A stretch of 64,000 bases of DNA from Escherichia coli (GTDB lineage: Bacteria; Pseudomonadota; Gammaproteobacteria; Enterobacterales; Enterobacteriaceae), in NCBI RefSeq assembly GCF_002854065.1, contig NZ_CP024150.1; one strand, given 5' to 3'. Shown here piece after piece: positions 3,001-6,000 of the stretch. Each line of letters begins with the position of its first letter. Position 1 is the first letter of the stretch. Made by a program: the position numbers.

Positions 3001-6000
3001 TCTTCCGGAGCCTGTCATACGCGTAAAACAGCCAGCGCTGGCGCGATTTAGCCCCGACATAGCCCCACTGTTCGTCCATTTCCGCGCAGACGATGACGTC
3101 ACTGCCCGGCTGTATGCGCGAGGTTACCGACTGCGGCCTGAGTTTTTTAAGTGACGTAAAATCGTGTTGAGGCCAACGCCCATAATGCGGGCGGTTGCCC
3201 GGCATCCAACGCCATTCATGGCCATATCAATGATTTTCTGGTGCATACCGGGTTGAGAAGCGGTGTAAGTGAACTGCAGTTGCCATGTTTTACGGCAGTG
3301 AGAGCAGAGATAGCGCTGATGTCCGGCGGTACTTTTGCCGTTACGCACCACCCCGTCAGTAGCTGAACAGGAGGGACAGCTGATAGAAACAGAAGCCACT
3401 GGAGCACCTCAAAAACACCATCATACACTAAATCAGTAAGTTGGCAGCATCACCGCTGACATGAAGAAAAAACCATTTCAAAGAAAATAAATGGCAAAAA
3501 TACAGCATGGGGAAAAATTGCCATTTTTACCGCCGCGTTATTTTTAATATTTGCTGTCTGCTGGTCGTAATAAGCAGAATAACAGAATGGTGTAAAAATG
3601 AACCTGGTTGATGCATTTGTCACTAAAGTGATATCCGGACCGTATGAAGAATACGGAAAATGGTGGGTGGATGTAGAATATATTTCCTGGGGAGTTCCGG
3701 GTAAAAGCCGGCTCATGTTTGACTCACGGGAACAGGCACAGGAAGTGCAGGAAGGTTTTCGATTTTTAACCTGAGCATATTTTGTTAAAGGGCAGAAGGC
3801 GGTGACCCTCTGCCCTTAAGTACGTTTCCGGGATTATCAGTCAACCAGTTCCCGGATCAGTTCCAGGATTGCTATCACTGCGTTAGCCACAGCAACAACC
3901 GCCCTGAGAACGATGATTAACAGGTTAATCATCCGTTTCTCCATCAATGGAGGAAATCACTGTTGTTTACTCTTACATTGCCTGTCACAACAGCTCTTTC
4001 ATTGTTAGCTGAAAAGAGACTTCCTCCGGCCAGAGCACCAGACGCAGCACCACCTGTTTGTCCGGCCAGGTCTTTGAATAGCACAGATCCATAGTCCCGA
4101 TGGATTGATGCGAAGGTAAGTCTCCAGACAAGGCTAACTTGCTGATTATACTTGTTTCAGGCGATATCGCTACTCCCGGAACAATAGACTGTAACGAACA
4201 GATTGCGATCAGGTGAATATAACGATATTCTGGTAACGTTAGTTGAAAAGAGACTTCCTCCGGGCCAGAGCCACCAACTCTCCCTGGGATCGCAAAAAAG
4301 CCGGCCTCACCAGTCGGCTTTTTTGTGCCTGTCTCTCACCACCTTCTGCTGTTCCTGTGAAAATGCCCTGCTGAATTCAGCCCTGCCCGGTCATTACCGG
4401 CGATTGTTCGCATTAATTCCACTCAGCCTCATCCCGAAATTTATCTATTTATCGATGGAGGAATCCTCGTGTCTTACCAACACTCCCCCACAACAGAAGA
4501 CCCGATGAACATATGGTATATCGTTGGCATCATATGTCTGCTCTTTGCGCTTCTCATCTGGCTCTTTTTACCCGACATCGTCTTTGCCACCTGCCTGATC
4601 CTGCACACAATGTGGGGGATGACTGACTGGGGGCCTTTTCACCATTTTGCCGCCCCCCGTTATAACCTGCTGGCCAACACCGCCAACAACGCTGCAACGA
4701 TCACTTTCAGCCAGTGGCTGGATGTCATGTCACAGACCGTGAGGATCCTCTGGCTGATTCTGCTTCCCATGACGATCGGCTTTCTGTGGATGTGGTTTCA
4801 GCATCCGGCCCAGCCCCGCTTCACCCGCAGACCACTGAATATCCACACGCTGCCACATCTGTTTTCATCACTGTCACCGGCGATCGCCCCCGTTCTGGCT
4901 GACGGAGACAGCAACAGACTCTTCCACGGACAAAAACGTCCCGAGCGCCGTGTCGCTCTAACCCCGGAAGTCTTTGTGGCGCAGAACAACCTTATCCGCA
5001 ACATGCAGCTCGATGTTGCGGCCACGCGCCAGCGCTTTATGGCGCAGCTGGGCCAGCCTCTGACCACCTGGAAAGACATGGCTCCACATGAAAAAGCGCT
5101 CTTTGCCGTCTTTGGCCTGCAGTTCTTCCTCGGGGACCGGAAAGCGGCTGTTTCCCTGATGAATAACCTCAACCTCTCCTGCAGACTCAAAAGCAAGCGG
5201 GACCAGGGGCGTTTCAGCACGCCAGTGTATTCACTGGCCAGAAACGCCTTTATCCGGGTCATAAAAACAGAAGGTGCACAACAGTGGCTCAGGCAGCACC
5301 GTTACCGCCGTATCAACGATATCGGTCGCGAACTCTGGCTGAGCATGGATGACCTCACCCGGCATGTCATGTTTTTTGCCACCACCGGTGGCGGTAAAAC
5401 AGAAACCACCTTTGCCTGGCTGCTCAACCCGCTCTGCTGGGGAAGAGGCTTTACCTTTGTTGACGGCAAGGCACAGAACGATACCACGAGGACAATCTGG
5501 TATCTCTCCCGACGTTTTGGCAGGGAGGATGATATCGAAGTCATCAACTTCATGAACGGCGGAAAATCCCGCAGTGAAGTCATTCAGAGTGGCGATAAAT
5601 CCCGCCCACAGTCAAACACCTGGAACCCGTTCGCATTCAGCACCGAAGCCTTCACCGCCGAAACCATGCAGTCCATGCTGCCCCAGAACGTTCAGGGCGG
5701 TGAATGGCAGTCACGGGCGATAGCCATGAACAAGGCCCTGGTCTTTGGCACATAATTCTGGTGCGTCCGGGAAGGTAAAACCATGTCCCTGCAGATGTTA
5801 CGGGAACATATGACGCTGGAAGGGATGGCAAAACTCTATTGCCGTGGCCTTGATGACCAGTGGCCGGAAGAAGCTATCGCACCACTGCGAAACTACCTGC
5901 AGGATGTCCCGGGATTCGATATGTCACTGGTGAGAACGCCGTCAGCCTGGACTGAGGAGCCCCGTAAACAGCATGCTTATCTCTCCGGTCAGTTCTCGGA

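Follow-up and report, generated by a model that had tools for sequence, protein, structure and literature searches.

A predicted DqlB/AgrB type I toxin-antitoxin module of the dinQ-like family and its diverged second copy in a plasmid-borne stretch of Escherichia coli DNA

Positions 3780-4330 of the window, by which we mean the whole 64,000-nt stretch of DNA analysed, very probably hold an intact module of the dinQ-like family, in which the DqlB toxin and the AgrB small RNA (sRNA) are predicted to form a type I toxin-antitoxin (plasmid addiction) system. For the window itself, family membership, RNA pairing and co-variation were assessed in silico, together with a fold switch for the first of two copies of the module, while toxicity, rescue by the sRNA, dependence on base pairing and addiction would carry over by analogy from homologues whose peptides are 81-84% identical. 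Earlier publications cover the family, its occurrence on plasmids and its role in addiction, and RefSeq already carries the gene by name. The family received its name in 2016, the year in which dql genes were also reported from natural plasmids (PMC5066626); in 2025 DqlB-AgrB was shown to act as toxin, antitoxin and addiction module on both pOXA-48 (PMC12365149) and pOXA-484 (PMC12317039), and silencing agrB by CRISPRi proved harmful (PMC12361523). As a discovery the module carries little weight, with some practical relevance. The features of copy 1, with the evidence for each, are as follows.

3780-3817, minus strand: dqlB terminator, an 11-bp hairpin with a U-rich tail (sequence; homologous to the dinQ terminator)
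3837-3932, minus strand: dqlB coding sequence, 31 aa and stop (ORF list, NF041473, RefSeq)
3939-3942, minus strand: Shine-Dalgarno (SD) sequence GGAG, element 4 of the dinQ-type switch (sequence; alignment with the K-12 dinQ SD)
3949-3957, minus strand: predicted anti-SD AUUUCCUCC, element 3 (MFE structures of full-length and 5'-truncated mRNA)
4004-4044, minus strand: AgrB target in the dqlB 5' UTR, mRNA nt 95-135, including element 2 (CCGGAGGAAGUCUC) (direct repeat, duplex, co-variation)
4110-4125, minus strand: predicted element 1 (GGAGACUUACCUUCG), near the mRNA 5' end (MFE structure of full-length mRNA)
4138-4150, minus strand: putative dqlB promoter, with -10 TATAAT at 4150-4145 and inferred start G4138 (K-12 dinQ alignment)
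4203-4231, plus strand: putative agrB promoter TTGCGA-17-TATTCT, 7 nt before the sRNA start (sequence; K-12 agrB)
4239-4326, plus strand: AgrB-type sRNA, 88 nt (Rfam RF02891, fold)

The first-pass annotation had described a 31-aa ORF with a GGAG ribosome-binding site lying divergent to a terminator-ended RNA, and both are present, at 3837-3932 on the minus strand and 4239-4326 on the plus strand. The peptide (MINLLIIVLRAVVAVANAVIAILELIRELVD, 31 aa) scores 66.2 bits against the NCBIfam model NF041473, "DinQ-like type I toxin DqlB" (cut-off 35), over its full length (1-31/31), and exactly this gene is dqlB in RefSeq (WP_001388983.1). The SD lies 6 nt 5' of the ATG, at nt 197-200 of the modelled mRNA, the terminator hairpin is kept in all aligned loci, and the locus recurs at 99% identity or more in 64 plasmid records. 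An IS1 element at about 2702-3399 touches no mapped element; some 440 bp lie between it and the stop codon of the toxin gene. A mok-like leader peptide encoded by the RefSeq 48-aa ORF at 3985-4131 or by a 46-aa ORF at 3944-4084 was rejected, because neither frame nor length of either ORF is conserved over the nine loci compared.

On the opposite strand, roughly 100 bp separate the sRNA start (4239) from the inferred start of the toxin mRNA (4138). The sRNA consists of a single-stranded 5' targeting arm, an internal stem-loop and an intrinsic terminator, whose conserved G+C hairpin runs into a stretch of U. Its predicted fold reaches -30.4 kcal/mol (z -2.75), and it matches the full Rfam AgrB model RF02891 (1-84) at 41.0 bits, a marginal score, 1 bit above the gathering value of 40. 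The segment said to be common to this transcript and the toxin 5' region was recovered as a plus-strand direct repeat, 4004-4029 against 4238-4263, of 26 nt at 96% identity, ungapped and displaced by 234 bp. With RNAduplex applied to sRNA nt 1-45 and the 5' UTR, sRNA nt 1-41 and mRNA nt 95-135 formed a 38-bp duplex with one bulge per side and a dG of -65.5 kcal/mol; 1000 mononucleotide shuffles averaged -30.4 (sd 4.0, best -48.8), so that the pairing is far beyond chance (z = -8.7). Within the first 23 nt there is a single mismatch, a G-U wobble. RNAduplex runs with full-length sRNA and full-length mRNA were discarded, as they gave inflated energies and huge internal loops, with shuffles averaging -50 kcal/mol.

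The 5' end of the sRNA co-varies with its own target over the nine independent loci, which represent seven plasmid groups and the chromosome. In the resulting matrix cognate pairs range from -55 to -66 kcal/mol, against -24 to -50 for non-cognate pairs, with one exception: copy 1 and the IncI-gamma/K1 locus pair strongly in both combinations (-61.6 and -66.3 kcal/mol) because they share the same specificity.

Promoters were assigned by homology. The -10 box TATAAT of dqlB is a perfect match, 6 nt before the GUUAGC start, and the mRNA would begin at G4138 with GUUAGC as in K-12 dinQ, whose +1 was deduced from the published SD numbering G184-G187 (PMC5066626). The putative agrB promoter has 8/12 consensus matches, under the scan threshold, and K-12 agrB has TTGCAA-17-TAGTAT at the equivalent position. 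A generic consensus scan of the locus called none of the homology-supported promoters and terminators, the plus-strand terminator included, its sole match being a chance-level plus-strand site at 4125-4152; the dqlB promoter was missed because of its poor -35, and the promoter assignments therefore rest on the K-12 alignment. For the window copy we infer transcript ends, 5' processing, RNase III cleavage and relative RNA stabilities.

With the 5' UTR elements defined as in PMC5066626, folding of copy 1 predicts that pairings 1:2, 2:3 and 3:4 exclude one another and that the full-length mRNA keeps its SD closed. In the MFE structures the anti-SD has as partner either the SD (closed) or element 2 (open), and in the full-length, translationally inert form element 1 is predicted to be paired with element 2. 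The predicted thermodynamic probability that the SD is unpaired is about 0 for the full-length mRNA, rises to 0.3-0.8 after removal of 40-60 nt, and returns to about 0 when the sRNA site is blocked. The fold model of copy 1 thus matches the published dinQ switch (PMC5066626). The same folding gave only the closed state in copy 2 and reproduced the switch partly in K-12 dinQ itself, so in-silico folding lends weak support.

Taken together, the mechanism that we propose runs as follows. The minus strand would yield a dqlB mRNA of approximately 350 nt, beginning near 4138 and ending at the terminator (3780-3817); in this transcript the pairing of element 1 with element 2 would leave the anti-SD free to sequester the GGAG, keeping the full-length mRNA inert. 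Processing at the 5' end would strip element 1, whereupon element 2 would capture the anti-SD, the SD would open and the hydrophobic 31-aa peptide would be made, insert in the inner membrane and kill the cell. The divergent AgrB would pair through its first ~41 nt with the element 2 stretch and close the SD hairpin again, and by analogy with dinQ the duplex may also be a substrate of RNase III. On plasmid loss the supply of sRNA would end and the toxin mRNA would be translated, leading to post-segregational killing. The checks proposed at first reading, toxicity on induction and rescue by the sRNA, are already published for close homologues (PMC12365149, PMC12317039).

Such modules are common on enterobacterial plasmids. 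dqlB has been found on 3310/15775 typed PLSDB plasmids, and on 83% of IncB/O/K/Z, 67% of IncI1 and 53% of IncX plasmids (PMC12365149), and our own plasmid searches returned 1739, 3752 and at least 5000 records, many with two or three places per record. The original interpretation as a dinQ/agrB-type toxin-antitoxin locus is upheld by NF041473, by RF02891 and by homology to K-12 dinQ-agrB along the entire locus, but its description of a plasmid-borne, duplicated version as unusual is contradicted by the at least 5000 PLSDB plasmids with a related locus, many of them carrying it two or three times.

The second copy that had also been noticed is indeed there, with its toxin and sRNA in the same orientations as in copy 1:

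53759-53854, minus strand: dqlB coding sequence, copy 2 (MINLLIIVLRAVVAVANALIAVLELIRQFID) (NF041473, 72.8 bits, cut-off 35; RefSeq dqlB, WP_000609149.1)
53933-53985, minus strand: AgrB target in the copy 2 5' UTR (direct repeat; duplex dG -60.8, z -9.3)
54180-54267, plus strand: AgrB-type sRNA, copy 2 (Rfam RF02891, 61.5 bits, gathering 40, full model 1-84)

The two copies are diverged paralogues (~67% identity) from two backbones, one IncK2/Z-type and the other IncX1-type; the second module (53759-54267) would have come with a different backbone segment and have its own sRNA and target specificity. The copy 2 sRNA reaches -42.7 kcal/mol on the copy 1 target, against -65.5 for the cognate pair, and no cross-neutralisation between the two copies is predicted. 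We lean somewhat towards a broader reading, in which the two co-resident modules are insulated from each other, the first ~23 nt of each AgrB encode its specificity and evolve together with the target, and plasmid groups fall into type I toxin-antitoxin cross-protection groups. In the predicted code, copy 1 shares its specificity with IncI-gamma/K1 loci and not with those of IncX, IncL or IncN. No systematic treatment of AgrB specificity groups was found in the DqlB/AgrB literature consulted. If this reading is true, a cointegrate plasmid must retain each sRNA whose toxin it carries; the predicted orthogonality bears on the build-up of addiction modules in such plasmids and also on plasmid curing, where every cognate sRNA would be needed to avoid or exploit killing.

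Homology to dinQ, which is LexA-regulated (PMC5066626), might suggest a toxin that responds to SOS or stress in the manner of chromosomal DinQ, expressed after DNA damage, instead of a constitutively transcribed addiction module, the more so as a CTG-N10-CAG LexA-like site occurs at 4054-4069 and is conserved at 53983-53998, and an almost identical site on plasmid pTF2 has an HI of 11.6 (PMC12211044). We regard this as improbable and set the LexA/SOS reading aside, because there is no LexA box at the promoter and LexA-like sites occur only within the transcripts: the box that overlaps the K-12 dinQ promoter (CTGGATAATCATACAG) is replaced by ACAAGTATAATCAGCAAG at copy 1, CTG-N10-CAG is missing from 4139-4165 and from 54070-54100, and the sites that do exist are inside the 5' UTRs. 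The one at 4054-4069 is 70-85 nt into its transcript, where the sequence is conserved for the structure of the RNA. Besides, the DqlB protein is unchanged on SOS induction (PMC12211044) and homologues act as addiction modules (PMC12317039, PMC12365149).

Even less credible is a decayed, non-functional remnant beside the IS1 insertion (about 2702-3399) in a mosaic plasmid. The marginal Rfam score of the sRNA would fit such decay, and a second copy could render the first redundant, but the ORF, the SD and anti-SD and elements 1 and 2 are intact, as are the two -10 boxes and the two terminators assigned by homology; over its first 23 nt the pairing deviates by that one G-U wobble, and the locus is nearly invariant (at least 99% identity) in the 64 plasmid records. 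Moreover, since the copy 2 sRNA is predicted not to cover the copy 1 toxin (-42.7 against -65.5 kcal/mol), losing the copy 1 sRNA would be lethal while the toxin is intact. We give no credence to a chance repeat with a spurious small ORF and no gene at all; it has in its favour the general frequency of short ORFs and nothing else, and is opposed by the matches to a curated HMM and a covariance model, by the pairing (z = -8.7), and by conservation and co-variation over the nine plasmid and chromosomal loci.

In hok/sok (parB of R1), a small hydrophobic membrane toxin is encoded by an mRNA that is inert at full length and activated by processing, an unstable antisense RNA represses it, and post-segregational killing results; Sok is a cis-encoded antisense RNA that overlaps the hok/mok leader. 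The predicted module resembles hok/sok and other plasmid type I addiction modules in its membrane toxin, an inert mRNA activated by processing, repression by an unstable antisense RNA and post-segregational killing. It differs in that its sRNA gene (4239-4326) is clear of the toxin transcript (<=4138) and would act in trans via a duplicated segment, and in that activation would follow processing of the 5' end, as the dinQ model has it, and not of the 3' end. Neither hok nor Sok Rfam families were found at gathering score anywhere in the 64-kb window, and membership of hok/sok was rejected on this result and on the lack of cis overlap of the sRNA.

The module is closer to K-12 dinQ-agrA/agrB (Weel-Sneve 2013; Kristiansen 2016, PMC5066626), with which it shares the divergent layout, an mRNA start at GUUAGC, the four-element 5' UTR switch with SD GGAG and start-codon hairpin, the sRNA fold and terminator, and the toxin gene terminator. 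The alignment with K-12 dinQ-agrB extends over the whole locus, taking in the -10, GUUAGC, SD, start-codon hairpin and terminator. Unlike the 27-aa DinQ, the window toxin has 31 aa, both copies fall below the cut-off (30) of the DinQ model NF041472, with 19.1 bits for copy 1 and 25.3 for copy 2, and BLASTP aligns it with DinQ in the C-terminal half only (10/17 identities). Further differences are that no LexA box is found at the window promoter, that each window locus has one Rfam AgrB match whereas K-12 has agrA and agrB, and that the window module is plasmid-borne with a probable addiction role instead of one in DNA damage.

Among plasmid systems, agrB-dqlB of the IncX3 plasmid pOXA-484, of the same family and architecture, is toxic, is neutralised by agrB and stabilises a plasmid (PMC12317039). 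The IncX-type loci L009 and L010 align over the whole module; in L010, from the IncX3 representative pNDM21_020023, which stands in for pOXA-484, the targeting arm is unlike that of both window copies (cross dG -40 to -47 vs cognate -56).

Another relative is the DqlB-AgrB module of pOXA-48 (IncL), studied by Baffert et al. (Nat Commun 2025; PMC12365149). There, the toxicity of DqlB shows in ghost cells and is relieved by agrB; a mismatch of 4 nt puts an end to repression, which a compensatory change brings back, and once the plasmid has been cured agrB by itself is enough to prevent killing. The pOXA-48 sRNA lacks the internal CCAGAGCCACCAACUC stem-loop segment present in the window sRNAs, and this validated locus gave no Rfam match at E <= 0.1, whereas the window sRNAs do match AgrB; a Rfam match is therefore a sufficient, not a necessary, criterion. 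Annotations generally leave out the sRNA half of the module, and validated plasmid variants escape the Rfam AgrB model. The targeting arm of the sRNA and its target sequence also differ between pOXA-48 and the window (cross dG -29 to -32 kcal/mol). The window copies are like pOXA-48 in the following: the toxin has 31 aa, with 25/31 (copy 1) and 26/31 (copy 2) residues identical, a divergent trans sRNA carries ~35 nt complementary to the 5' UTR, the same conserved 5' UTR blocks and the same terminators are present, and the site adjoins trbC of an MPF_I transfer region.

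The locus at 3837-4327 carries a dqlB-agrB type I toxin-antitoxin module, a previously known and annotated feature whose close homologues have been characterised experimentally. As the first-pass annotation had described, a 31-aa ORF with a ribosome-binding site (GGAG, 6 nt 5' of the ATG) lies divergent to a terminator-ended RNA, and that observation was confirmed here, since the ORF, the sRNA, the shared repeat, the duplexes and a second module (toxin 53759..53854, sRNA 54180..54267) are all present. The units called at copy 1 are the following:

3837..3932, minus strand: dqlB coding sequence, 31-aa peptide MINLLIIVLRAVVAVANAVIAILELIRELVD
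4239..4326, plus strand: AgrB-type sRNA unit, 88 nt, with a 3' end formed by a G+C hairpin and then a U-run
3985..4131, minus strand: RefSeq 48-aa 'hypothetical protein' WP_001346191.1, wholly within the dqlB 5' UTR, where it overlaps the AgrB target

The last of these is probably a spurious gene call, because no ORF with its frame or length was present in the eight other dql loci. The toxin peptides match NCBIfam NF041473, "DinQ-like type I toxin DqlB" (copy 1, 66.2 bits, full-length; copy 2, 72.8; curated cut-off 35), and both miss the DinQ model cut-off of 30 (19.1 and 25.3 bits); RefSeq labels both genes "dqlB: DinQ-like type I toxin DqlB" on NZ_AP027791.1. The sRNAs match AgrB, RF02891 (4239..4326, 41.0 bits, gathering 40; 54180..54267, 61.5 bits), and no other Rfam family reached its gathering score in the whole 64-kb window. 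With the whole-locus alignment to K-12, these matches bear out the DinQ-like, agrB-type arrangement proposed earlier. The Rfam AgrB model is nevertheless too narrow to detect many plasmid AgrB genes, since the validated agrB of the IncL plasmid pOXA-48 (8330..8420 on the minus strand of that locus), which is without the internal CCAGAGCCACCAACUC stem-loop segment, gave no RF02891 match even at E <= 0.1.

The inferred transcript start of the copy 1 toxin is G4138, with TATAAT at 4150..4145, and that of copy 2 is 54069, with TATAAT at 54081..54076; both are homologous to the G of K-12 GTTAGC, at which the dinQ start was placed via the published SD numbering G184-G187 (PMC5066626). Ahead of the copy 1 sRNA, TTGCGA-17-TATTCT at 4203..4231 occupies the position of the K-12 agrB promoter, and the sRNA on its own is predicted to fold like the Rfam consensus, with an unpaired 5' arm followed by an internal stem-loop and a terminator. 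A promoter-like CAGACA-16-TATACT site (4125..4152, plus strand) in the spacer that separates the toxin start from the sRNA gene would give a longer plus-strand transcript through AgrB, although such a match is at chance level (one found, 0.7 expected).

The plus-strand segment said to be shared by the sRNA gene and the toxin 5' region was located at 4004..4029, with a 96% identical repeat at 4238..4263; because the minus strand encodes the toxin, the plus-strand RNA is complementary to the toxin 5' UTR. The predicted pairing held up on computation: nt 1-41 of the copy 1 sRNA pair with nt 95-135 of the mRNA over 38 bp, with one bulge per side, at a dG of -65.5 kcal/mol (z = -8.7 against 1000 shuffles; mean -30.4, sd 4.0, best -48.8), and the copy 2 duplex reaches -60.8 (z -9.3).

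In the primary dinQ transcript, four elements pair 1:2 and 3:4 and shut the SD (Kristiansen et al. 2016, PMC5066626). Once the leading 44 nt are gone, element 2 can pair with element 3 instead and the SD opens; AgrB, by binding a stretch with element 2, shuts it again and creates an RNase III substrate (PMC5066626). Copy 1 has equivalents of all four, their sequences differing from K-12 by compensatory changes:

4125..4110, minus strand: element 1, GGAGACUUACCUUCG
within the AgrB target, minus strand: element 2, CCGGAGGAAGUCUC
3957..3949, minus strand: element 3, AUUUCCUCC
element 4, AUGGAG

In partition-function folding, the probability that the SD is unpaired was about 0 in the full-length copy 1 mRNA, climbed to 0.3-0.8 upon removal of 40-60 nt, and fell back to about 0 with the sRNA site blocked. 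Because the same simple model gave no open SD state for copy 2 and reproduced that of K-12 dinQ only partly, the folding is taken as consistent with the dinQ switch model and not as proof of it. A perfect inverted repeat, AUGAUUAAC...GUUAAUCAU, also covers the start codon of dqlB and codons 1-7 (3913..3932, minus strand), is present at this position in every one of the nine aligned loci, and is predicted to form an AUG-sequestering hairpin; its K-12 dinQ counterpart is GUGAUUGAU...AUCAUC.

The first-pass annotation was wrong in regarding a plasmid-borne, duplicated version as unusual. The 2016 definition of the dql family expressly took in natural plasmids as well as strains carrying two or more dql genes (PMC5066626), dqlB occurs in 3310 of 15775 typed plasmids (83% of IncB/O/K/Z, 67% of IncI1, 53% of IncX; PMC12365149), and our own searches returned 1739, 3752 and at least 5000 PLSDB records with a related locus, many of them with two or three places. 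Loci with multiple dql copies are common. Some IncK2/Z plasmids have a pair of dqlB genes at a distance of 600 bp; NZ_CP116070.1, with three matching places, has such a tandem at 856..954 and 1558..1653.

Copies 1 and 2 share about 67% identity across the locus and stem from different backbones. Copy 1 adjoins trbC and a MOBP relaxase, as pOXA-48 dqlB likewise adjoins trbC, and is 86-99% identical to IncK2/Z loci having the same 58-aa neighbour ORF; copy 2 shares 99.7% identity with a locus on an IncX1 plasmid. Window positions 1..40311 match the reverse complement of NZ_AP027791.1 42000..82310 at 40308/40311 positions, this being the E. coli plasmid p2017.06.05CC_1 (109.8 kb, IncFIA/IncFII, MOBF+MOBP, MPF_I). 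Identical near-consensus LexA boxes, CTGTATATAAAAACAG, stand at 17832..17847 and 39299..39314, each beside a separate umuD, and together with two ardA and two relaxase types (MOBF plus MOBP) they point to a plasmid put together from two backbones, as a mosaic or a cointegrate, so that the "duplication" reflects mosaic assembly and not local duplication. The TrbC (DotL/IcmO-like coupling protein) homologue, a single gene in pOXA-48, is here two plus-strand ORFs (4469..5755, 428 aa; 5783..7252, 489 aa with a TraM-recognition domain), and either a frameshift or a naturally divided gene may explain this. A type II pair, a RelE/ParE-family toxin and its NadS-family partner, maps to 49218..49886, some 4 kb from copy 2, and brings the addiction modules stacked on the plasmid to at least three. 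A complete-looking myo-inositol catabolism cluster flanked by IS30 (about 19830..34030, mapped from RefSeq annotation) comprises iolB, C, D, E, G, an ABC sugar transporter, methylmalonate-semialdehyde dehydrogenase and a MurR/RpiR regulator.

Duplex energies were computed for every sRNA and target combination of nine aligned loci (both window copies, K-12, pOXA-48 (IncL), IncI-gamma/K1, IncX4, IncX3, IncK2/Z and IncN). The toxin peptides are nearly invariant, while sRNA arm and target vary jointly; cognate duplexes ranged from -55 to -66 kcal/mol and non-cognate ones from -24 to -50, the sole exception being copy 1 and IncI-gamma/K1, which have the same arm (-61.6 and -66.3 kcal/mol). The copy 1 arm (4239..4261) fits the target of IncI-gamma/K1 pSAG-76334 as well as its own, so that cross-protection is predicted between the two groups of plasmids, with a possible dampening of post-segregational killing where one replaces the other. 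Counting mismatches over nt 1-23 gives 1 and 2 for the cognate pairs of copies 1 and 2, against 8 and 7 for the cross pairs. The cross pairs (-41.7 and -42.7 kcal/mol) are weaker than agrA/dinQ (-51.1), AgrA being reported not to repress dinQ (PMC5066626), and a 4-nt mismatch abolishes repression in pOXA-48 (PMC12365149); on these grounds, neither sRNA is predicted to neutralise the toxin of the other module. The predicted specificity code, with the insulation expected of the co-resident modules, is the sole modestly new point, and derives from pairing energies and published mismatch data.

That the dql locus is an SOS toxin seems very improbable. LexA-box-like CTG-N10-CAG sites conserved between the copies do occur (4054..4069 and 53983..53998), and a near-identical site on plasmid pTF2 scored HI 11.6, a moderate LexA candidate (PMC12211044); DqlB went undetected in the proteomics of that study, and an SOS response could therefore not have shown up there. 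These are, however, the only such sites at the two loci and sit 70-85 nt inside the toxin transcript, away from the promoter, and the LexA box over the K-12 dinQ promoter, CTGGATAATCATACAG, is absent. LexA-independent transcription fits an addiction role.

Such a role is documented in relatives. DqlB of pOXA-48 is toxic, producing ghost cells, is neutralised by agrB through base pairing, as mismatch and compensatory mutants showed, and accounts for killing upon plasmid curing (PMC12365149, from 2025); agrB-dqlB of IncX3 pOXA-484 was independently validated as a toxin-antitoxin pair and plasmid stabiliser (PMC12317039), and agrB silencing was deleterious in a CRISPRi screen (PMC12361523). Against K-12 dinQ-agrA-agrB, copy 1 is alignable over its entire length, sharing the toxin terminator, coding region, start-codon hairpin, SD, conserved 5' UTR blocks, -10 box, GUUAGC transcript start and an sRNA with terminator, but its toxin has 31 residues instead of the 27 of chromosomal dinQ, and it has one sRNA gene where the chromosomal locus has two.
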